Below the pieces are notes generated by a model. The model had not been told where the DNA came from, searched no databases, and saw only the letters and a list, made by a program, of their open reading frames with translations. Positions 2,554-60,106 of a stretch of DNA of 64,000 nucleotides are shown one piece after another. The DNA is from Octopus vulgaris. Lineage: Eukaryota. The stretch spans positions 39,308,001-39,372,000 of the forward strand of contig OX597830.1 in the NCBI GenBank assembly GCA_951406725.2. Direction: 5' to 3'. Each line of letters begins with the position of its first letter. Position 1 is the first letter of the stretch. Both the position numbers and the translations under genes were made by a program.

Positions 2554-2710
2554 TCTATATTTAAGAGATGAGGAATTATGTACATTATTTACATTCGACG
2601 GATATTTGTCCTCATTTTGTTTGTTGTTAACACAACGTTTCGGCTGATATACCCTCCAGCCTTCTTCAGGTGTCTTGGGAAAATTTCGAACCTGTTTTTT
2701 TATGTTGTTG

Positions 2711-2757
<47 letters not shown>

Positions 2758-3745
2758 GTTGTTGTTCAGGTCACTGCTTTGAATCATCAAACTCGGAATT
2801 TTGGGCTTAGTAGCCCGCGCTCTTAACCACTGCGCCATATGCCCGTGGACAATCATGGAGTTAATTTTAGGGCTTATAAATCTAATATTCTCCTCTCCCT
2901 TAATACCCGTTCCCATATGCTGCTCGGTCTGCTAAGGAGGTTATGGTGTCCTAGCATATGTGCTGCTTCCTTTAGTTTTCTTATTTTCCAGTGGTGTTCT
3001 CTGCCTATTATTTTAACTTAATCCCATAGGGGGAAGTGGTCTCCATTTCTCCATACATGATCAGTTATACCCGGTTTATCAATATCTCCTCGTGTCACAG
3101 CTTTGCGATGTTCGTCTACTCATATTTTGAGAGAGTGGCATGTTTCGCTTTTGTATATCCCACAAAAAGCTGCATGGGATGGAGTACACGGAGTCTTTGG
3201 TCATATTCTCTTCTATTGGTGGTTTTACTCGAATACTGCCATGATGTCATATGGGCCGCATATCTTTTGTATCTTTTCGGAAAGGCCTTTCACATATGGT
3301 AGACAGACTGTGAACAGTTTATTGGCATCATCCTTTCTCTTCTCCATAATTTGAGTGGATAGTATACTTTTGAGGTAGTTGTTGCTTAACAGATCATTAT
3401 TGAGCTTGATCGTTCCTTCGTGGTGTGTATCACGATATTTACTTATATTCTTTGCGCGATGTTTTAGACACTGAGCAATTCATCTCTTTACACTGTATGG
3501 ATGGTGGGAAATGAAGTTGAGGTATCGTCCTGTAAAGGTCGGCTTGCGATATACGGATGTCCTGAATTCATACTTGATGCGTGTTAGTAACACCTCCAGG
3601 ATTGTCTTTTTCCTTTTCCATTGTGAACTGTATGGATGGCTCTATTGAGTTCACATGATCTAACAGCACTAGGGACATCTTCCTGGTGGGGCCAGATTAT
3701 AAAGGTGTCATCAACATATCGTAGCCATAGTGTTGGTTTTTACTA
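2552..3745 (-). mobile_element. 5'-truncated Penelope-like element (RT C-terminus, GIY-YIG relic, terminal repeat with tRNA-like head and HHR)
   Basis: Minus-strand translation gives WLRYVDDTFIIW, IQFTMEKE, SVYRKPTFTGRYLNFISHHP and VYSIPCSFCGIYKSETC..EHRKAV, with stops; 3' repeat at 2552-2850. Confidence 0.85.
2629..2674 (-). ncRNA. Minimal type I hammerhead ribozyme motif
   Basis: GACAC-CTGAAGA-A-GGCTG-gagggtatat-CAGCC-GAAA-C-GTT-GTGTT: stem I GACAC/GTGTT, stem II GGCTG/CAGCC, loopless palindromic stem III (AACGTT), GUU triplet. Confidence 0.75.
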
Positions 3746-3749
3746 CGAT

Positions 3750-3979
3750 ATGTTGATGACATCTTTATACTCTGGTCCCACCAGGAAGATGTCCAAGTGC
3801 ATTTAGATGATGTAAATTCAATAAAGCCAACCATACAGTTCACAGTGGAAAAGGAAAAACGACAATCCTGGTGGTATTACTAACATGCATCAAGTATGAA
3901 TTCAGGACATCCGTATACCGCAAGCCGACCTCTACTGGACGATACCTCAACTTCATTTTCCCACCATCCATACAGTGTA
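3750..3979 (+). mobile_element. Inverted duplicate of the PLE RT segment (fold-back 5' end)
   Basis: Diverged reverse complement of ~3490-3720; encodes VDDIFILW...SVYRKPTSTGRYLNF. Confidence 0.85.
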
Positions 3980-4007
3980 TATATGTAAATATATGTATTT
4001 ATATGAA

Positions 4008-4980
4008 TCCCCCCGACCCCTACTTCTTCAGTCCTTCATCCTTTCACCCCTACTCCCCTTCCCTTCTTCCCTCTTTCTCCCTCCCTCCATCCCTCTTCCC
4101 CTTCCCTCTGCTCCCTCACTCCCTCACTCCCCTTCTCTCTCCCCCTCTCCCTCTTTCCTCCCCTTCCTCCCCCCTCATCCCCATCCTCTCTCTCCCCCAT
4201 CCTCTCCCCCTCCCACCTCTCCTCCCCCTCTTCTTCCCCTCCCCTTCTCTCCCCCACTCTTCTCCCCCTCCCCCTCTTCTCCTCACTACACCACACAACT
4301 TTACACATCACATCATATATGATGTGCCATACTAATACATACACCAACTAATACATACTAATACGTACTAATACATACTAATACATACTAATACATACAC
4401 CAACCCTATACATACACACGTCCAGACCCCTCATACGCACTTATACTCCCTCATACACACACACACTTATACATACTAATACGTACTAATACATACTAAT
4501 ACATACTAATACATACACCAACCCCATACATACGCACGTCCAGACCAATCCTACGCACTAATACTCTCTCATACACACACACACACACCCTTATACATAC
4601 TAATACATACACCAACCCTATACATACACACGTCCAGACCCCTCCTACGCATTATTAGCTGGTCCTTCAACCCTATTATCAACCCTATTATCAACCCTAT
4701 TATCTCCCCTTATTTCGCTCTCGCGTCTCATGTTTGATCTTTGACCTCTGGCCGCAATCAGATCGCCATGTTGATTCGTTAGCTACTGCACGCATTTTTT
4801 TTCTCTCCTTCTTTCTGCGTTTTTTTTATCTCTGTGTATCTTTCTGTTGAAGAGCGTAGGCTCGAAACGTTAAAGACTTGTTTTATTTATATTTCCTGAG
4901 CGCCATACTAATACAATTGTTCGTTTGTTTTCCACCTGCCTTCGTCTTTTGTCTATTTTCATAAAGCTTCCCGTTATATA
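4008..4980 (+). repeat. 5' pseudo-LTR of the Neptune PLE
   Basis: Near-identical to 8490-9433; C/T-rich tract, (CTAATACATA)n-type and (CAACCCTATTAT)n minisatellites, HHR motif. Confidence 0.9.
4839..4876 (+). ncRNA. Minimal hammerhead motif with variant core CUGUUGA (5' pLTR)
   Basis: TCTTT-CTGTTGA-A-GAGC-gtag-GCTC-GAAA-C-GTT-AAAGA; stems I and II pair perfectly. Confidence 0.7.
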
Positions 4981-5595
4981 TTATGCGCTCACGTGGTCTC
5001 ACTTTCATCCTATATTCTACCAATACCACTATCAACACTTACCTCTACCTTGGATTTTCTTTACCTCTTGGATACTTACCATTGGCTGCACCTCTCTTTC
5101 GCGGATCAAAGTGACTTTGCATTGATGTGAAATCCTTAAAAAATATACCACGACGTCTACACATTTCTCACCTTGAACTTTCAACCTTGAACTTGTTCGC
5201 ATAAACTGTCCCGTTTGTTGTATTTTTATTTTCTCTTATATTACCACTTTTTTTACATTCATTTCATGCTTTCCACATTTTCCTGCATTTTTGTTCTCCT
5301 TTCCGTCTTTCTTCCCTCTCTGGATGTCCATACTCCGTTTCCTCTGCCTGCACCCCCCTTTTTTGCCTCCCCCTCTCTCTGCTTCCCTTCTTTCTTTCCC
5401 TTTTCCGTTTGCCCCGTCTTTTCTGCCCCTATCGCTTACTTATCTAGTTTTTTCATACGATTATTATTTTTTTGTTTTTTTGAACGTTTGTTTTTTCCCC
5501 TTTTTTCGCTATCCTTTTTTTCTATTTTTTTCATACGATAATTTTTGTTTTTTGTTTTTTTTGTTTTTTCGAACGTTTTTTTCCGCTATCCCATC

Positions 5596-8463
5596 ATGCC
5601 GGATCCTAGGTCCTACCTCCTCACCCTCCATCACCGTTTGAAGGATCATCTCCGTTCTCTTCCTGTATATTGCCTTCAGCCGTCCGTTAATCTCTCTCTA
5701 CTTCTTTTTAAAAAAACCGCTTCTCTAGCCATGTCTCTTTCCTAAGCCGCTGCCTACATCACCGACTCATCCCTAAAGGTTTCCGCCTCCACTTCCACCC
5801 TGCTCTCCACTCGGATTCTTCCATCTTACCCATACTCCGCACCACATCTTACCGCCTTATGCGGGCCACCATTCGCTCCAATCTCTCCAAACTACATGCC
5901 ATCAACCGCCTTCTTCCTCCTGCTTTCTCCACCTTCTTCTCCTCTCTGCCGCCTCTCTATGCTCCAAACACGCTACGCTTCATTATCCATTTGAATCAAC
6001 TCTTCCATCAATTTCTTTCTGATACCAAACTTCGTAAACTCCAATCACTCTTCCATTCCACCCTACCCGACGCCACTACCCCAACTCCTCCACCACCCTT
6101 CTCCCCTCCCGATAGGCTCCATCCACCCACACCTAACCCCACTGCCCCTCCCTACAACCCCTTCTCCCCTCCCGATAGGCTCCATCCACCTACACCTAAC
6201 CCTACTGCCCCGCCCAACCACCCCCCACACACCTCCCCAATCCCTCCCCCTCAGACCTCCACGAGACCTACCACCCCTCCTACTTCTATTCCACCCACCC
6301 CTTCTCCACTTCCGTCTGTTGTTACCATTCCCCCCGATCTTCCCCTCTCTGCGGCTGAACGCTCCGTCCTTGGTAGGGGTCTGCGTTTCATCCCCTTCAC
6401 TCCATCCTGTAAGGAATTCCAGACGCGAGTTGATGTCCACAGCTTTGTGCGCCGTGTCCGGTTGGGTGCGCATTACCACGACTCGCCACCCACACCCAAC
6501 GAAGAGGACTGCTTCACTGGCCTGGGCCGCCGACCATCCCCGTGGACGCCTGCCCCTGGCCAGATCCTAGCAGTGGATCTTTTCGCGGGCGCTTGTCAGC
6601 GTGCATTCGAGCGGTTCAACTTCTCCAGGCGCCAACGCCGCCTCAACATCTCCCCGGCTGAGCTCTTGGCTCTTCGTTCCCTCCAACGGCGCGCTGACAT
6701 TATCATCAAACCGGCTGACAAGGGTGGAGCTGTAGTGGTGTGGCGCGCGGACCTCTATAGGGCCGAGGCTTTCCGCCAACTCAATGACACCTCCTTCTAT
6801 TCCCCTCTGCCCTCTAACCCCACACGTAGCTACCAACAGACGGTATCCTCTACTGTCCACGACCTCATCTCGTCCTCCCGTCTCCCCCGCACCGCATCCA
6901 ACCTAATTGTGCGAACCCCACGTACCCCCACCATTTACTTCCTCCCCAAAATCCACAAACCCAACAACCCTGGCCGCCCCATCGTCTCCGCCTGTAACTG
7001 CCCCACGGAGCTCATCTCTAAATACCTCGACCGTGTCCTTGCCCCCTAGTGGCATCTCTTCCCTCCCACATCCACGATACCAACCATGCTCTCCGGCTTT
7101 TCAACTCTTTCTCCTTTCCTCCCGGCTCCTCCAAAATCCTTTTTACTATGGACATCCAAAGCCTCTATACTGTTATCCCTCACCACGAAGGACTGCAGGC
7201 CCTTCGACACTTTCTTGACCTCCGCTCTAACCCTGTACCTGACACCTCCACACTCATTCGTCTGGCCGAACTTGTCCTTACTCTGAACTGCTTCTCGTTC
7301 GCGGGCGAGTTCTACCATCAGGTCTCGGGAGTGGCCATGGGAACGCGAATGGGCCCCAACTATGCGAACCTGTTCGTTGGCTATGTTGAGGCCCAATTAT
7401 TCTCTAATTTCACTGGTCCCACTCCTGAACTATATGGTCGTTACATCGACGACATTATCGGTGCCACCTCACTCTCCCGCGAACATCTAGATTCCTTCCT
7501 CTCTTTCGTCCAATCTTTCCATCCAGCCCTCCACTTCACTTTCACTATCTCCAACACCTCTGTCTCCTTCCTCGACATTTCGGTTAGCATTCTTCACTCC
7601 ACTCTTACCACCTCCATTCACTACAAACACACAGACTCACACTCATACCTCAACTTCTCTTCCTCCCACCCAGAACACACCAAGCTTTCCATCCCCTATT
7701 CCCAATTCCTCCGTCTACGTAGGCTCTGTAGTGACGACCATGACTTTGAGACTCAGTCTCAACGTATGGCTCACAACTTCACCCTACGTGGATACCCCCC
7801 CCCCACCACTATCCACACCGCCCTTGCCAGAGCACGGTCCGTGGACCGTGTATCTGCTCTCTCTCCCCGAACCCGCCCTGTAGTCTCCCGCCTCCCTTTT
7901 CCCCTCACTTACCACCCCACGACCCTACGTCTCCAACGCACCATTCTTCGAGCTTTCCGTCATCTCCAGTCCGACCCGTCCACCTCTTCCCTAACCGACC
8001 CCTCCCTCTTTCAAACGAGCCCACAACCTTCGAGACCTTTTGGTCCAAGCTCCTTCCCTGACCCTACCTCCCAACCCGGCTCGTTCCCTGCTCCCGTCCA
8101 CGTTGCCGCACTTGCCCTTACCTCTCCAACACCACCCGCCTCACTAGCACCCACCATCGACCCTATCCCATCATCCACTCCTTCACCTGCACCTCCAGCA
8201 ATATTATCTATTGCATCTCTTGCTCTCTCTGCAATTCCTTGTACATCGGACAAACGGGACGCCGCTTGGCTGACCGGTTCGCGGAACACCCGTGACATCC
8301 ACCTTGCGAACGACACACCGGTCTCACGCCACCCGGCTCGCAACACCTTCTGTGTTCGGTTTGTCCTTGCCATCCGGATTCCCGTTTGCGCCGTGAACAG
8401 AATTAATCTTCTCTCTTCGCTCTTATACGCCATTTGGTCTCAACTCTCCCCCTCCTCATCTAA
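5596..8463 (+). pseudogene. PLE polyprotein (RT + GIY-YIG endonuclease), frameshifted in this sequence
   Basis: N-terminal HVSFLSRCLHHRLIPKGF; IIKPADKGGAVVVW; YFLPKIHKPNNPGRPIVS; TMDIQSLYTVIPH; QVSGVAMGTRMGPNYANLF; RYIDDI; FLDI; HYKHTDSHSYLNFSSSHP; RCRTCPY linker; FTCTSSNIIYCISCSLCNSLYIGQTGRRLADRFAEH; PFGLN. Frame breaks near 5710, 7047 and 7980-8400. Confidence 0.9.
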
Positions 8464-8489
8464 CCCCCTCTCCCCCTCCACCTATCCTT

Positions 8490-9426
8490 TCCCCCCGACC
8501 CCTACTTCTTCAGTCCTTCATCCTTTCATCCCTACTCCCCTTCCTTCTTCCCTCTTTCTCCCTCCCTCCTTCCCTCTTCCCCTTCCCTCTGCTCCCTCAC
8601 TCCCTCACTCCCCTTCTCTCTCCCCCTCTCCTCTTTCCTCCCCCTCCTCCCCTTCCTTCTCCCCTCCTCTCTCTCCCCATCCTCTCCCCCTCCCACCTCT
8701 CCTCCCCTCTTCTTCCCCTCCCCTTCTCTCCCCACTCTTCTCCCCCTCCCCTCTTCTCCTCACTACACCACACACTTTACACATCACATCATATATGATG
8801 TGCCATACTAATACATACACCAACTAATACATACTAATACGTACTAATACATACAAATACATACTAATACATACACCAACCCTATACATACACACGTCCA
8901 GACCCCCATACCACTTATACTCCCTCATACACACACACACTATACATACTAATACGTACTAATACATACTAATACATACTAATACATACACCAACCCTAT
9001 ACATACGCACGTCCAGACCAATCCTACGCACTAATACTCTCTCATACACACACACACACACACACTATACATACTAATACATCCTATACATACACACGTC
9101 CAACCCTACTACGCACTATTAGCTGGTCCTTCAACCCTATTATCAACCCTATTATCTCCCCTTATTTCGCTCTCGCGTCTCATGTTTGATCTTTGACCTC
9201 TGGCCGCAATCAGATCGCCATGTTGATTCGTTAGCTACTGCACGCATTTTTTTTCTCTCCTTCTTTCTGTGTTTTTTTTTCTTTCTGTGTATCTTTCTGT
9301 TGAAGAGCGTAGGCTCGAAACGTTAAAGACTTGTTTTATTTATATTTCCTGAGCGCCATACTAATACAATTGTTCGTTTGTTTTCCACCTGCCTTCGTCT
9401 TTTGTCAATTTTCATAAAGCTTCCCG

Positions 9427-9433
<7 letters not shown>
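8490..9433 (+). repeat. 3' pseudo-LTR of the Neptune PLE
   Basis: Direct repeat of 4008-4980; ends AAAGCTTCCCGTT followed by (TA)n. Confidence 0.9.
9292..9329 (+). ncRNA. Minimal hammerhead motif with variant core CUGUUGA (3' pLTR)
   Basis: Identical to 4839-4876. Confidence 0.7.
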
Positions 9434-9510
<77 letters not shown>

Positions 9511-21660: not shown

Positions 21661-21765
21661 AATTCGGGGTGAGTACTTGATAATTATAAGCACCTGTGTA
21701 TACCGTTTGGTGGTGTAGGTGGTGGAGTAAATTGATCAAAATAAAAACATGATGCGAAGGATTCA

Positions 21766-21843
21766 GCGGTACATATGTTTCGGGCCTTTATTAGACAGAT
21801 TTATAACAATGCATAATGTATGTCTGTGGCCTTCTTCAGCCGC
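21766..21843 (-). ncRNA. Type I hammerhead motif (left palindrome arm)
   Basis: Reverse complement of 22070-22147. Confidence 0.75.
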
Positions 21844-22069
21844 GCACAACAGCTTCCACAAGGACATGTGTTACATCAAAAATTCTTGGTTGAGGATGCA
21901 AATCCTCTCATTCGCGTACGACATAATGCGGCAGCAGCATTGAGAGAAGAAAGAGATGGACGCTTCAATTCTATGCTGCTGCCGCATTATGTCGTACGCG
22001 AATGAGAGGATTTGCATCCCCAACCAAGAATTTTTGATGTAACACATGTCCTTGTGGAAGCTGTTGTGC

Positions 22070-22147
22070 GCGGCTGAAGAAGGCCACAGACATACATTAT
22101 GCATTGTTATAAATCTGTCTAATAAAGGCCCGAAACATATGTACCGC
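22070..22147 (+). ncRNA. Type I hammerhead motif (right palindrome arm)
   Basis: GCGG-CTGAAGA-A-GGCC...GGCC-C-GAAA-C-ATAT-GTA-CCGC: stem I GCGG/CCGC, extended stem II, palindromic stem III ACATATGT, GUA triplet. Confidence 0.75.
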
Positions 22148-22179
22148 TGAATCCTTCGCATCATGTTTTTATTTTGATC

Positions 22180-22244
<65 letters not shown>

Positions 22245-24503: not shown

Positions 24504-25258
24504 TATTTCGGCTGATCTTGAAACGTGAGCGTTCTCAAATAATCTTTGTACATGTGATATTTTACGGTTTTCCCTCCATATCTTCGTGAGTTATTTTTGA
24601 GTAAACACTATCTGGGAGACTTTTTCTTAAAGTAGTGGAAATAGCTAAAAAACTTTTTGGCTGCTATTTCTAATAATTTCAGTATGTGGCAAAGTAATTT
24701 ATTTTACTAAGCCCTAATTATATAACGTAATATTTTGAATACGCCTTAAATGGTCCTTTTACATATTGAACATTACTTGGTGAAATTAATTAATGACTAA
24801 TTGATTTTACCCTTAATTATTGATAATATAATTCGTTTCTCCCTGCTCTTTTACTGCGGTTCTCACCGCATTAGTATGTTTACTCACGTGGGTGGAAGTG
24901 GGAAGAACATGAATCTTCACTTGTACTTTTTGAATTTGCTAGTACTGGCAGTTTGAAGATGCTTGTCTGAGGTGATTCATTATCGGACGGGTATGTTCAT
25001 TTTTTTTAGTGTTTTCAAATCCAAATTTAAGAAATGTTGAGCTGACGAAAGAAATGCTGAGTTTTATTTCGGCTGATCTTGAAACGTACTGTTTTCCCTC
25101 CATATCTTCGTGAGTTATTTTTGAGTAAACACTATCTGGGAGACTTTTTCTTAAGGTAGTGGAAATAGCTAAAAAACTTTTTGGCTGCTATTTCTAATAA
25201 TTTCAGTATGTGGCAAAGTAATTTATTTTACTAAGCCCTAATTATATAACGTAATATT

Positions 25259-25265
<7 letters not shown>
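24504..25265 (+). mobile_element. Retrozyme-like / non-autonomous PLE-like partial tandem (unit ~561 bp)
   Basis: Direct repeats 24504-24741 and 25065-25265, bounded by (TA)n on both sides; no ORF; HHR halves at 25037-25087 and 24504-24538. Confidence 0.7.
25037..25088 (+). ncRNA. Hammerhead motif (3' end deleted in this copy, intact in the upstream repeat)
   Basis: TTGAG-CTGACGA-AAGA..GCTGA..TCGGC..TCTT-GAAACGT; the upstream copy continues GAAA-CG-TGAG-CG-TT-CTCAA. Confidence 0.65.
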
Positions 25266-25312: not shown

Positions 25313-25410
25313 TTCCCTAAGCGTTTGCTAGTGCTTTGCATATACCACGTCTACGCGTTGTTGTTCTTTTTTTTTGTATTTCCTCGTTTTGGGGAGACGA
25401 GGATTAACTA
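25310..25410 (+). mobile_element. Solo PLE-type 3' tail between (TA)n runs
   Basis: CCACGTCTACGCGTTGTTG...GGATTAAC(TA)n, related to 34632-34724 and 62665-62853. Confidence 0.55.
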
Positions 25411-25436
25411 TATATATATATATGTGTGTGTGTGTG

Positions 25437-25508
<72 letters not shown>

Positions 25509-25552
25509 CGTATATATATATATGCATACATACATATATATATATATATATA

Positions 25553-27183
25553 CAGTTGCGGCTAAAATGTTCAGAACGGCATTGATTTCGTCAGAAAAGT
25601 AGGTATAAGTTTTTATCAAAGTTGTTTTATATTTTATAATTTTAACAGACAATAAATACAATATTAATTATTATTGTCTGAGATTTTGGTGCAATTTGAG
25701 AGGATAATACAAACGTTATGGATGATTTAGTGATTTACTGCTAAACCCATGGCGGCCAAAATGATCAGAACGGTTGAAAAAAATAACAAAATAATCAAAA
25801 ATAACAGAGAATACTGGAATTATTTAATATTTAGTGTGAAGCCCTTTAGCTTCAATCACACTTCGACATCTTCGACTGCATGAGGAAATTAAATTTTCAA
25901 TTTCTTGCTGGGTGATCTTATTCCATTCTTCCTGAAGGGCATTCCATAATTGCTCGGTTGTTTTAGGATTTCTGGCTTTCGAACGTTCTCCTAGAATATT
26001 CCACACATTTTTAATAGGATTAAGAGCTGGGCTTTGAACAAGCCAATCCATAGCAATAATCTTTTCAGCCTTGAGAAAGTTCATGACCACCTTAGCCTTG
26101 TGACATGGGGCATTGGCCTGCATGAATATGGGTGATCGCTTAGTTGAATTTCTCAGCACAGGCAAGACATGATCTTTTACAAGTTGTTTATAAACTCCTG
26201 CATTTACCTTTCCATGTAATCGCACCAAAGGGCCCACACCATCTCCAGATATCATCTACCAAACCATGACACTTCCTCCACCGAATTTAACGTTAGTCTT
26301 AAGGCATTTAGGCGACAATTTTTCACCTACTTTTTGACAAACGTACCTTTTCCCATCTGATCCCATCTAACATAAACTTAGATTCATCACAGAAATGCAC
26401 CGTTTGCCATTTTTCTTGAGACCACAACACATGTTCGGTTGCAAAGGTAAGACGACACTTTTTATTCTTGGAGCTGATCAGTGGTTTCACTGCAGGTGCT
26501 CTTGCTTGTAGGTCATGTTCAACTAAACAACGAGACACAGTTTTTCGAAATAAAGTTTTCTTCAGTACAATGCTAATTTCCCGAGAAACAACAGCAGCAG
26601 TTTTAAATCTGTCCTTTTTAACCAACTTTACCATAGCACGATCTTCTCTCTTGCTCGTTTTTCTTGGCCTACCTGTAGACTTTCTTGCTTCGCACGAACC
26701 ACAATCATCGTAGACCTTAAGAATACCGTGAACAACACTTTTTCACTTGTTAACAATCTTTGCAATAGACCCAATACTTAAAGTATCCTTCTTTCGGAGC
26801 TTAATAATCTGCTGACGAATTGGTAACGGAGTAAGTGGCATTATATTATCAAAGTACACTGCAGATACTCTTACTAATGTATAGTAAATGAACCGTCAGG
26901 TAAACAAATTCAACACATTAAAGTTCACCGGTTAAATATACTAAAACATGGAGTAAAAGCAACCGTTCTGATCATTTTGGTCGCCATGGATTTGGCAGTA
27001 AATCACTAAATCCTCCATAAATTTTGTATTATCCTCTAAAATTGCACCAAAATCTCAGACAATAACCATTAATATTGTATTTAGTGTCTGTTAAAATTAT
27101 AAAATATAAAACAACTTTGATAAAAACTTATATCTACTTTTCTGACGAAAACAATGCCATTCTGAACATTTTGGTCACAACTG
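25553..27183 (-). mobile_element. Full-length Tc1-family IR/DR transposon, defective
   Basis: ~224-bp TIRs (25553-25776; 26960-27183) starting CAGTTG, each with AAAATG(T/A)TCAGAA direct repeats at both ends; TA TSD. Confidence 0.93.
25824..26841 (-). pseudogene. Tc1 transposase pseudogene
   Basis: MPLTPLPIRQQII...K*..TGRPRKTS..FCDESKF..MQANAPCH..SPALNPIKNVW; second catalytic D and the E are mutated; stops and a frameshift. Confidence 0.9.
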
Positions 27184-27399
27184 TATATATGCATATATAT
27201 ATATTTATATATATAAATATATATGTATATATATATATATGTGTGTGTGTGTATACATATATATATACGTATATATACATATATATATATGTATATATAT
27301 ACATATATTTATACAATTATATATATATGTATATATGCATATATATACATATATATATGTATATATATACATATATATATATATACATATATATATATT

Positions 27400-27835: not shown

Positions 27836-27950
27836 GGCAAAGAAGAACTGGAATTCAAATATATAAAGGATGTAAAAAATAATATAAAGTATTTATAAAA
27901 TTATAAAGAATATAAAATATATAAAAGTATAAAAAACTATAAAAAAATTC

Positions 27951-28979
27951 AGCAGAATTGTTGGGCATTCTGGGACTGGATTTAGCCAGCGAAAAATTGC
28001 CGAAAATATTCAAATTCCTCTTGCTACTGTTAACAGAATTGCAGTGCAATTCAAAAGCCAAGGAAAAGAATCAAAAGATTCTCGTCCCGGCCGACCTGAG
28101 CCCTCGGAAAGGAAGCTTCGCTGTTTGAAGAGAATTGTGGAAAACGGACCCCGTTCGAAGACTTCTGACATTGCAAAGCAGCTAAAAGTTAGTCCAAGAA
28201 CGTGTGTTACATATCGGCATAAGCTTGGATATTACGGACGAACAGCTAGAAGAAAACCTCTCCTTCAAACAATTAATATCATGAAAACAAAGAAATGGGC
28301 TAAGGGGATGTCAGAAAAATCTAGTTCATTTTGGGATAGAGTGATTTTCTCAGATGAATCCAGATTTGTATTATTTTCAGACAGTGCACGTGTTTCGGTC
28401 TGGAGGCTTCCTAATCAAGAATTTGATTTGAAACAACTCCAACCAACTGTGAAACATGGCGGTATTTCTGTAATGGTATGGGGAGCTGTCACCAGCAACA
28501 ATCGTTCTGAACTGATTGAATGTGTTGGAACCATAAACTCTGAAAAATACATCGAAATACTTAAGCAAGGACTATTTCCGATGTATTCACACGATAATAT
28601 AACGAAAAATGAGTTTTTATTCATGGAAGATGGGGCTCCATACCACACAGCGAAAAAGAATCAACAATGGCTGACCGAAAATGGGATCAAAAAGCTTCCT
28701 TGGCCGAGCCATTCTCCTAACATGAACCCAATTGAAAATCTTTGGAGCATACTAGATAGAGCTATACGAAAAACTCGACAGAAACCTAAATCTAAAGATG
28801 AATTGTCTCGATTGTTGCGTGAAAAATGGGCAGAAATTCCACAAGAGACAATCACAAAACTCATCAGTTCAATGCCTAAAAGAGTTTCTCAATTAAAAAC
28901 TCCAAATACTAAAGTATGTAGTCCTACCTATCGATTACATTTCAATTATTCGCTTTGCATATTAAATAAAAGATTTTGA
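27951..28979 (+). CDS. Tc1 DD34E transposase (open frame, 5' end/start lost)
   Basis: Frame is open upstream of 28044 (RIVGHSGTGFSQRKIAENIQIPLATVNRI HTH); GRP; VIFSDES; MEDGAPYH with 34 aa between D and the E of SPNMNPIENLW; no left TIR seen. Confidence 0.8.
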   Translation, partial: SRIVGHSGTGFSQRKIAENIQIPLATVNRIAVQFKSQGKESKDSRPGRPEPSERKLRCLKRIVENGPRSKTSDIAKQLKVSPRTCVTYRHKLGYYGRTARRKPLLQTINIMKTKKWAKGMSEKSSSFWDRVIFSDESRFVLFSDSARVSVWRLPNQEFDLKQLQPTVKHGGISVMVWGAVTSNNRSELIECVGTINSEKYIEILKQGLFPMYSHDNITKNEFLFMEDGAPYHTAKKNQQWLTENGIKKLPWPSHSPNMNPIENLWSILDRAIRKTRQKPKSKDELSRLLREKWAEIPQETITKLISSMPKRVSQLKTPNTKVCSPTYRLHFNYSLCILNKRF

Positions 28980-47559: not shown

Positions 47560-47766
47560 ACGTTGCTCCAGTCGTAATGAGCTGTACCTGTATTTCAAAG
47601 TGCCGGCCCTGTCACGCTCTGTGTCACGCTGAATCTCCCTGAGAACTACGTTAGGGGTACGCGTATCTGTGGATTGCTCAGTCACTTGCACGTTAATTTC
47701 ACGAACAGGCTGTTCCGTTGATCGAATCAGTTGGGACCCTCGTCGTTGTAACCGACGGAGTGCTCC
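47560..47766 (+). mobile_element. SINE family D, 3' part
   Basis: CTGAATCTCCCTGAGAACTACGTTA...GTAACCGACGGAGTGC, matches 58342-58662. Confidence 0.8.
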
Positions 47767-47824
47767 TTATACATATACATATATACATACATATACATAC
47801 ACACACATATACACATATACATAC

Positions 47825-52392: not shown

Positions 52393-52473
52393 ATATGCCC
52401 GCGGCTATATAGCGTAATAGTTAAGAGCGCGGGCTACTAACCCTAAGATTCCGAGTCCAATTCCACTTGAATA

Positions 52474-52514
<41 letters not shown>

Positions 52515-52705
52515 CATCAGCAAAAAATACCTTAGGAATGAGAACCCAGGGTTTGGTTCAAAATTACACCAGGACACCTGATGAAGGCTGGAGAGTAAAT
52601 CAGCCGAAACAAACAAAATGAGGACACACATCTGTCCAATGTAAATAATGTACAGAATTCTTCATCTCTAAAATATAGAACAGTAAACAAGTACTATACT
52701 ATACT
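52393..52705 (+). mobile_element. Solo tRNA-head + (AAT)n + HHR module (PLE terminal repeat)
   Basis: Homologous to 2552-2850; HHR GACAC-CTGATGA-A-GGCTG..CAGCC-GAAAC at 52573-52610 lacks its 3' strand. Confidence 0.8.
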
Positions 52706-58310: not shown

Positions 58311-58341
58311 ATATATATATATATATAATATGTGTGTGAAT

Positions 58342-58662
58342 GCGCGTGGCTCAGTGGTTAGGTCATTCTGCCTACAATCGTAAGGTCGTGAATTCAATCC
58401 CCAATAGTGCGTTGTGTCCTTGAGCAAGACGCTTTATTTCATGTTGCTCCAGTCCGCTAAGCTGGCAAAAAGGAGTAGTACCTGTATTTCAAAGAGCCAG
58501 CCTTGTCATATTCTGTGTTACGCTGAATCTCCCTGAGAACTACGTTAAGGATACACGTGCCTTTTGAGAGCTCAGCCACTTGCCAGTTAATTTCACGAGC
58601 AAACTCTTCCGTTGATCGTATGAGCTGGGACCCTCGTCGTCGTTGTAACCGACGGAGTGCTT
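58342..58662 (+). mobile_element. Full-length tRNA-derived SINE family D
   Basis: A box TGGCTCAGTGG, B-box-like ATTCAATCC, central TGTGTCCTTGAGCAAGAC, inserted between (TA)n runs. Confidence 0.85.
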
Positions 58663-58663
58663 C

Positions 58664-58695
<32 letters not shown>

Positions 58696-58874
58696 CTAAG
58701 AGAAAACGATAAGGTCAAGTACAATTCGGTAGAACGTCCTGATAAATTCCTGGCCACTGTCCTTCAGATGTGTCAACATCAAATTTAAATCTACGTCTTT
58801 ATCTGTATATCTACCTTCTCTATAATGTTACTACTTGATTTGAAAGCCTTTGTATTATTGGAAAACCTATATAA

Positions 58875-58960
58875 TTGGCTGATGAGCACTCGGCATCTTA
58901 AATCTGCTGTAATACTTACAACTTTTAATAAAATGATGTAGTGCGAAACAATTGTACCAA
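58875..58960 (+). ncRNA. Minimal type I hammerhead ribozyme with canonical core
   Basis: TTGG-CTGATGA-GCACT..GCATC...GATGT-AGTGC-GAAA-C-AATT-GTA-CCAA: all core nucleotides canonical, palindromic ACAATTGT stem III, GUA triplet; (TA)n starts ~40 nt downstream. Confidence 0.85.
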
Positions 58961-58995
58961 ATTACTGGAGTCATTCTTGTTGCTTATTTTTGAGT

Positions 58996-59070
<75 letters not shown>

Positions 59071-59084
59071 CACACACAAATTTA

Positions 59085-60106
59085 AGTGCTGAATCCCTAG
59101 AAGTAAAAGAACAATTATCAGAAAAATAGAAGGAATTAACAAGAAAATTAACAAGCTTAAATACTGCTGGTAGCAAAGCACCCATTTGACTGCCATTGCA
59201 TCATTCAAATCGAAAATACACAACATCCAAAAAAGTATAATGACCACCATTAACAAACAAAGCATAGCTGAGGAAATTTGGGCCATTGAGAAATTAAACC
59301 CCAACCCTAAAGTGCTCTCTTCGTTTGAAAAAAAACATAAGGTCGCAATTTCCACTGTTGGTCCTCTGGTCGATGAGAACAACACTCTACATAATGCAGA
59401 ATCCATGTGTGAGATATTGCAGAGACAGTACTGTTCTGTTTTCAATAGCGCTAATGCGGTTCCTCTGACTAGTAACAGTGATGTAATCCCTCAACTAACT
59501 GACATAACTTTTGGTGCTCCTGATATCCTAAGAGAAATAGATATGGCCAAGTACAATTCGGCAGAAGGTCCTGATAAATTCCCGGCCACTGTCCTTCAGA
59601 TGTGTCAACATCAAATTGCACCCCCTCTAGCTTAGCTCTGGAGGAACTCACTTGACGCAAGCTACATTCCTTATCATCTTCTTTCCCAGTTTGTCGTTCC
59701 AGTCTTCAAAAAGGAAAAACAAATCTCTTGCAGTGAATTACCGTCCGATTTCACTCAGCTCTCATATCATTAAAGTATTTGAGAAGGGAGTGAGATCGCG
59801 AATAACTCGCTCGAATAAAACAATCTGCTGAACCCCAACCAGCATGGTTTCCGTGATGGCAGGGACTGCCTGTCGCAGCTTCTGCAACATTTTGATATCT
59901 TAAAAGCTTTGGGAGAAGGCTTGATTTCAGTAAGGCATTTGACAGAGTGGACCACAAAATCCTGCTGAAGAAACTGTTCAACACTGATGTCCGTGGAAAG
60001 CTGCTGCAGTGAATAAAGTGTTTCCTGACGAGCAGAACCCATCATGTTGTACTTCAGAGAATCCGGTCCAGCTCAGCCACAGTCAGTAGTGGTGTCCCAC
60101 AAGGTA
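59085..60106 (+). mobile_element. CR1/L2-like LINE RT fragment
   Basis: GPDKFPATVL, VVPVFKK, NYRPISLSSHIIKVFE, NPNQHGFRDGRDCLSQL, DFSKAFDRVDHKILL, SGVPQGT; stops and frameshifts. Confidence 0.85.

Follow-up and report, generated by a model that had tools for sequence, protein, structure and literature searches.

Introduction

Hammerheads of the kind carried by the ends of Penelope-like elements (PLEs) and templated joints of L1 insertions are both already in print. The minimal hammerheads of metazoan PLEs (PMC4209133; PMC6765202) have a helix I of 4 bp, an enlarged helix II, G10.1-C11.1, and a palindrome formed by positions 15.2-16.2 and loop III. They exhibit compensatory changes within families, occur mostly as lone truncated copies, and are predicted to act as dimers. 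Their cleavage is reported to be weak and dimeric in PMC4209133, where an additional base between positions 9 and 10.1 is called conserved. In PMC11167929, cleavage is reported only with the protein of the element. The PLEs of the Hydra clade, which includes an Octopus member, target (TA)n and carry a canonical hammerhead near the 3' end (PMC8557442). The RT and EN of this clade are marked by DKT and CxCX5C motifs and by the lack of CCHH. Several motifs of that clade in File S2 of the same source are without the extra base, and several have a stem I that ends in UGG, a CUGAUGA that runs straight into stem II, a self-complementary helix III of 4 bp, and an A at the cut site.

Animal non-LTR retrozymes are A+T-rich and high-copy and carry a type I hammerhead in tandem units of 150-450 bp (PMC7229834; 10.64898/2026.07.22.740005). 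Such units have been found in molluscs (PMC7229834), and an origin from PLE terminal repeats has been proposed for them (10.64898/2026.07.22.740005). In the giant squid genome, 235 hammerhead-1 loci have been annotated. Templated insertions at the 5' joint of L1 have been reported as 22 cases in 3,611 solo L1 insertions (10.1101/2024.08.27.596794) and as three cases in a second source (PMC11702581). In these sources, the templates are shorter than 250 bp and typically lie within 15 bp of the site, and the joints are those of truncated insertions with microhomology.

The locus described in this work lies in a stretch of 64,000 nucleotides of Octopus vulgaris DNA (hereafter the window). The window is A+T-rich and is rich in microsatellites and decayed mobile elements. 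The locus carries one hammerhead, which shares the traits of metazoan PLE hammerheads that are given above. It also shares the (TA)n target, the place near the 3' end, and the listed features of stem I, core, helix III, and cut site with several motifs of the Hydra clade. Unlike the PLE hammerheads of PMC4209133, it has 59 nt between the core halves, and its link to a PLE ORF is putative; the loop 2 sequences listed for the Hydra clade are only 3-10 nt in length. The A+T-rich, high-copy family with a type I hammerhead is like the non-LTR retrozymes. However, the locus has one unit with a short helix I, and the family seems to be at least 255 nt longer upstream in one contig. The 5' joint of the module resembles the L1 templated insertions in the length of the template (90-95 bp), the joint of a truncated insertion, and the microhomology (5 nt). 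It differs from them in that the template would lie about 460-620 bp away and in that the element is likely a PLE.

Organisation of the locus

The order of the features is SINE-like repeat, (TA)n, LINE piece, hammerhead module, (TA)n, LINE fragment of 1 kb, and (TA)n. The features are as follows.

58335..58665 (approximate bounds), forward strand: SINE-like repeat to the left of the site, with a second copy at 47576-47768 (83%)
58667..58695, no strand: left (TA)n array, which would probably be what lies to the left in a microsatellite that served as the target
58696..58785, forward strand: copy of LINE ORF2, 90 bp, or 95 bp if ATAT at 58691-58694, which is common with the TA array, is counted
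58781..58785, forward strand: AAATT overlap of 5 nt that is common to the LINE piece and the hammerhead family, from contig ends
58781..58997, forward strand: end of a member of a high-copy repeat family with a hammerhead, truncated on its 5' side, from contigs of public runs
58875..58960, forward strand: type I hammerhead, predicted to cut after A58956
58948..58955, forward strand: palindromic helix III of 8 nt, the predicted dimer interface, from variants with matching shares and dimer energy
58998..59070, no strand: right (TA)n array at the 3' joint, from repeat annotation
59075..60105, forward strand: decayed internal fragment of LINE ORF2 (endonuclease-RT linker into RT), flanked by TA arrays at both ends
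59528..59617, forward strand: likely template of the 90-bp piece, collinear within the LINE fragment, from the BLAST match

The repeat at 58335..58665 is called SINE-like from its appearance; ARAGORN found no tRNA for this repeat. The LINE fragment at 59075..60105 is 43-45% identical to a protein of Argonauta hians, P0001 (PF14529, PF03372), with 43% over 231 aa, and its RT region matches P0002; stops and frameshifts are present. The 90-bp piece also matches P0001 by tblastn (E 0.002). Protein searches with the LINE ORF gave matches in 2 of 271 and 2 of 17 candidates, which are too distant to polarise the DNA changes. The LINE fragment is without its 5' part and without its 3' end. That a TA array flanks it on either side points to breakage or capture linked to TA.

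The hammerhead motif

The core of the hammerhead consists of CUGAUGA (58879-58885), GAAA (58945-58948), and GUA (58954-58956). Stem I pairs 58875-58878 with 58957-58960 (4 bp). Stem II pairs 58886-58890 with 58940-58944 (5 bp) and is closed by G10.1-C11.1; the predicted fold extends it beyond a bulge of 2 nt. Helix III consists of A-U and C-G around AAUU, and 58948-58955 is a perfect palindrome of 8 nt. Positions such as 10.1 are given in hammerhead numbering. All features of a type I hammerhead (CUGANGA, GAAA, NUH, three helices, and an open helix I) are present, as are those of the PLE type (helix I of 4-5 bp, helix II of more than 4 bp, and palindromic 15.2-16.2 and loop III). This copy has no additional base between positions 9 and 10.1, but one loose contig end of run X7 hints at a subfamily in which A9 is followed by one.

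When both strands of the 64 kb were scanned with a strict type I pattern, 58875-58960 was the only match, and strict matches arose in two of 200 block-wise shuffles. A looser pattern gave one match against 0.03 expected. Rfam reported no hammerhead at the gathering score in the window, nor at E up to 5 in 58600-59100; the long stem II may be the cause of this miss at 58875-58960. An earlier note, made from the letters of this DNA, had called the motif the best canonical hammerhead, with a canonical core, a stem II that is closed by G-C and has a long extension, a palindromic AAUU loop III, a GUA site, and a module end in (TA)n. Each of these descriptions agrees with what was found here.

An exact 23-base hammerhead pattern was found in none of the metagenome collections searched. 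A degenerate 21-base motif gave three metagenome and four prokaryote loci. None of the seven has the upstream CUGANGA or further likeness, and they were set aside as chance matches.

The module as a member of a high-copy family

The contigs of four of the 24 listed public runs were aligned to 58696-58997 at 80% likeness. Twenty of the 24 listed runs (10 studies, 5 organism codes) contain part of this segment and none contains half of it. No RNA run is listed among those that contain it, although X7 may be one. In the four runs, 1032, 664, 52, and 64 contigs were aligned, and nearly all of the depth falls on 58781-58997. The summed depth over 58795-58992 is 1.3e5-5.5e5 in X1 and 1.9e4-1.9e5 in X2, where depth does not represent copy number. 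The summed depth over the LINE piece (58696-58772) is 150-375 in X1 and 0-86 in X2. In X1 and X2 the depth thus falls about 100- to 1000-fold between the module and the LINE piece, and in X7 and X9 it falls to zero.

Among the loose ends listed, at least 19, 10, 1, and 3 contigs depart before 58781, and they depart into non-LINE sequence; 95 more loose ends exist beyond those listed. Beyond 58990, the family goes on in different sequence in at least 20, 17, and 4 contigs among the loose ends listed, and its 3' ends differ at 58965 and 58990; the locus itself has a single unit. One contig of X7 runs for 255 nt upstream of 58781 without return to the module. Judged from these contigs, 58781-58990 belongs to a high-copy family. 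The earlier note had proposed a search for family members and a check of whether the LINE piece is unique to this locus. The piece lies outside the family, since every loose end listed ahead of 58781-58783 is non-LINE.

The module exhibits dispersed, 5'-truncated, high-copy ends in (TA)n, as is expected of PLEs. It is likely the terminal repeat of a PLE, since PLE hammerheads likewise have a helix I of 4 bp, a long helix II, a palindrome in helix III, and a TA target. With the Hydra clade the agreement is a likeness of hammerhead form and target, and assignment to the clade would need an RT. PLEs of the EN+ type have an ORF for a telomerase-like RT with a GIY-YIG nuclease upstream of the terminal repeat, and a pseudo-LTR or partial-tandem layout in which a tail of 30-40 bp is optional. 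Neither an RT nor a GIY-YIG gene tied to the family was found, and the copy is 5'-truncated. The 30-letter loose ends gave no trustworthy frame when they were read for a PLE C-terminus.

Two described octopus elements were compared by eye as parent families and rejected. Hydra-1_oBim differs from the module in both its hammerhead and its 3' end. Naiad (Naiad_Obim) was set aside since the module has a canonical hammerhead, and its 3' end also differs. Short motifs of the module gave no relevant match in the supplement of PMC8557442, where line breaks can hide matches. Among the results listed in a search of mainly open literature, without Repbase and Dfam, no publication was found that deals with this family or with PLE 5' joints that are templated. 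An entry for the family may therefore exist in a catalogue such as Repbase or Dfam, and cases with a long stem II or from molluscs may be present in the supplementary alignments of PMC4209133.

Covariation among family variants

Variable positions were found at 31 of the 210 positions of the family, and ten of them lie in 13 stem pairs. Both sides have changed to another Watson-Crick pair in four of the 13 (58877/58958, 58887/58943, 58888/58942, and 58950/58953). The shuffle probability of this is about 0.002, which is optimistic because the variant rows are unphased and the copies are related. A fifth stem pair is variable on both sides without keeping the pairing. None of the 12 core positions is listed as variable, which is not significant alone (p 0.22). 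At a CpG, C58944>T is found at 21-43%, where the G-U pair is kept, and G58945 (core G12) has no variant row.

The pair in loop III gives the clearest signal. The shares of 58950 A>G and 58953 T>C are 26 and 22%, 73 and 62%, 44 and 44%, and 54 and 54% in the four runs, and the palindrome is kept, a property of consequence only for a helix III that is made by two molecules. These variants indicate that the hammerhead is under selection in the family. If this is true, the covariation in loop III would back the dimer model of PLE hammerheads with a case from nature.

Predicted folding and activity

In its lowest-energy fold, the monomer does not form the hammerhead; its 5' flank instead binds the palindrome and the cut site is buried (-16.9 versus -11.5 kcal/mol). 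Across six constructs, the active monomer makes up 1e-2 to 5e-7 of the ensemble. The active domain-swapped dimer of 58873-58962 (-32.6 kcal/mol) equals the cofold minimum in energy and is favoured by 8.8 kcal/mol over two monomers (-23.8). With longer flanks, for which the active dimer was scored without flank pairs, other dimers win, and a rival helix that buries the cut site beats both the active monomer and the active dimer. The hammerhead is therefore predicted to cut only as a pair. A predicted misfolded monomer and a favoured dimer agree with the weak, dimeric, or protein-dependent cleavage that has been reported for PLE hammerheads.

The earlier note had proposed the motif as the best candidate for an activity test. 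That proposal calls for a caveat, since the monomer is predicted to misfold; the favoured form is the trimmed dimer. In the active family, the palindromic helix III would allow two transcripts, or two units in tandem, to pair and form two active sites. The lone copy at 58781-58997 is most likely an inert fossil.

The LINE piece and its joints

BLAST aligned 58691-58785 to 59523-59617 on the same strand over 95 bp (91.6%, E 1.5e-34) with an offset of 832 bp. The earlier note had described a LINE copy of 70 bp about 830 bp upstream of its match. The copy and the offset stand, and the length is revised to 90-95 bp at 92%. From 58696 onwards there are seven differences in 90 bp, and three in the 70 bp of 58716-58785; six of the seven fall in the first 40 of the 90 bp (p 0.03). 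No further copy of the 1 kb LINE fragment was found in the 64-kb window.

The piece starts directly after (TA)n at 58667-58695. Two LINE contigs of X1 and one of X2 appear, from the contig-end column, to end at 58785. Since the family starts at 58781 and these contigs end at 58785, the two sides have a microhomology of 5 nt (AAATT) in common. The chance of five or more common letters at the joint is about 0.008. Both joints of the piece have short common letters (AAATT, and ATAT with the TA array). No contig that spans the joint at 58785 was found among the 32 of 1826 pieces listed.

The contigs listed on the LINE piece are three from X1 and two or three from X2. The runs were aligned over 58696-58997, so the letters of the neighbouring LINE were polarised through the piece. 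The letters of the piece at 58730 and 58735 are found in none of the covering contigs, and that at 58751 is private in part. The neighbour would have private changes at 59544 and 59547, as suggested by missing rows, and the piece has the family letter at the corresponding 58712 and 58715. The seven differing sites thus consist of three apparent private changes in the piece, two in the neighbour, and two that are assigned to neither. The A at 58746 (59578 in the neighbour) is common to the piece and the neighbour, where two of three X1 contigs and three of three X2 contigs have G. It is the single site at which the two seem to agree against most other copies, and it may be a mark of a subfamily.

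The piece very probably came from the neighbouring LINE. This is concluded from the direct orientation, the match 832 bp downstream, the rarity of the segment in the runs, the A at 58746, and the low chance of an unrelated copy within 1 kb downstream in this orientation. That chance is 2e-4 at 1000 copies and 2e-3 at 10000 copies, for an assumed 2.3 Gb (a size taken from the contig letters of the runs). Direct orientation with the match downstream is the outcome of strand invasion of the right flank or of a long target duplication. A LINE copy closer to the piece than the neighbour had been named beforehand as evidence against capture, and one exists in the letter: a contig of X1 has three listed differences from the piece, against seven for the neighbour, and also has A at 58746. 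The comparison is weak because two drifting copies each sit nearer to a consensus-like copy.

Proposed mechanism and alternative explanations

The reading that we prefer, to which we give an even chance, is that a cut-short end of a likely PLE was inserted between (TA)n arrays and that the LINE piece was copied from 832 bases downstream while the insertion closed. By analogy with known PLE biology, the element nuclease would nick the (TA)n that follows the SINE-like repeat; reverse transcription would start about 35-40 nt 3' of the hammerhead and stop after about 215 nt. The end of the new strand would then pair with AAATT in the downstream LINE and be extended by 90-95 nt, as the five letters and the orientation suggest. 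The extended strand would join the TA array on the left, perhaps by way of ATAT. The same end state could arise if about 600 bp of target were duplicated and most of the left copy were later lost.

Template capture from nearby DNA or RNA during insertion or repair, as the earlier note had proposed, is favoured by the joints, the geometry, and the non-family piece as far as nearby DNA is concerned, but its timing is less certain. The piece and the neighbour are seven in 90 letters apart (7 in 180 for the pair), versus about two private changes in 210 for the module (p 0.09; 0.03 if there is one such change and 0.56 if there are five). The X1 contig that is nearer to the piece than the neighbour also speaks against capture during insertion, as does the distance of about 460-620 bp from template to site, versus typically within 15 bp in the L1 reports.

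In the first alternative, the LINE piece is a local duplicate from another time. It could be an older short duplication or a second fragment of a complex LINE insertion, to which the PLE end was joined through microhomology while target DNA was lost. It could also be what a later tandem duplication left after a TA-mediated deletion. We regard this as possible and less probable than capture at insertion. It would explain why the LINE pair looks older than the module, and the neighbouring LINE, too, is an internal fragment with a TA array on either side, which implies that the site had been rearranged before. The joints of 5'-truncated insertions also usually show microhomology without capture. 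However, two events are needed and the age gap is not significant, whereas a single insertion into one TA array accounts for both TA flanks and the direct orientation.

The second alternative concerns the identity of the module and not the joint: it could be a non-coding, non-autonomous, retrozyme-like monomer instead of the end of a coding PLE. The very high depth, the lack of a linked ORF, and the mollusc units and proposed PLE ancestry noted in the Introduction would fit such a monomer. The single copy at the locus, the lack of a head-to-tail joint among the five joints listed, the X7 contig that implies a unit longer than 460 nt, and a helix I of 4 bp versus the canonical 6 make it unlikely.

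The third alternative is that the reverse transcriptase switched from PLE RNA to LINE RNA or to a distant LINE copy, with the neighbour being coincidental. Chimeras of two RNAs in the same orientation are known for L1, and the piece has family letters at 58712 and 58715, where the neighbour differs; the closer X1 contig would also fit. This reading is improbable given the rarity of the segment in the runs and the low chance of such a neighbour, and RNA read off the neighbour would still be of local origin.

An assembly error between two TA arrays is very improbable. No spanning contig is present among the 32 pieces listed, and two letters of the piece are in no covering contig. However, the seven differing sites indicate that one stretch of DNA has not been placed at two positions, the joint lies in non-repetitive sequence with the 5-nt overlap, and no run contains half of the sequence words, so the source individual may be missing from the runs. 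That the LINE piece and the module spread as one chimeric family is hardly credible, even with the 95 further loose ends and 1794 further contig pieces beyond those listed, given the fall in depth at the joint in all four runs and the listed non-LINE loose ends.

Returning to capture during insertion, a bolder form of it can be put forward tentatively. To close its insertion, a PLE might have invaded DNA some 600 bp downstream and used it as template. Alternatively, a staggered cut of that length might have ended at an ATT motif, like the one preferred by an anole PLE protein (PMC11167929). The PLE would belong to an uncatalogued and very abundant octopod family with a long-stem-II hammerhead whose dimer palindrome is kept by covariation. 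If true, the locus would be a fossil record of the unresolved second-strand or 5'-joining step of PLEs, and a natural example of a PLE insertion finished by copying local DNA, as in L1 but from unusually far. One locus cannot set a rule, and neither the hammerhead nor the LINE patch represents a new kind of system.

Other mobile elements in the window

A near-full PLE is located at 4008-9434 on the forward strand. It has terminal direct repeats of about 950-980 bp (4008-4981 and 8490-9434, 94.6%), which are C-rich with tandem units. Its RT match (PF00078, E 2.4e-6) is below the Pfam cut-off, and a hammerhead-like core with U for C3 is found at 4847 and 9300. We take the element to be Neptune-like by appearance. 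A broken second PLE consists of 2560-3980 on the reverse strand and 52396-52681, with RT and GIY-YIG-like pieces recognised by eye and a self-inverted part of 490 bp (3489-3979). Its hammerhead cores, at 2637-2669 (reverse strand) and 52578-52610 (forward strand), do have the additional base that follows A9.

A third hammerhead family is located at 24505-25265 on the forward strand as a partial tandem between TA arrays, with a direct repeat of 179 bp (24563-24741 and 25087-25265, 98.9%). Its core at 25042-25085 has a damaged helix III, and an intact-looking half of a palindromic helix III is found at about 24520-24535. A tail motif of 13 bases in this family (24591 and 25115) is common to the 3' end of the module at 58781-58997.

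Two Tc1/mariner-type elements are also present. The first (25409-27333) has inverted repeats of about 370 bp including the TA flanks (86.7%), and the second (27933-28979) has an ORF of 348 aa that matches DDE_3. A self-inverted stretch of 454 bp (21730-22183, 95% identity) adjoins TA arrays.
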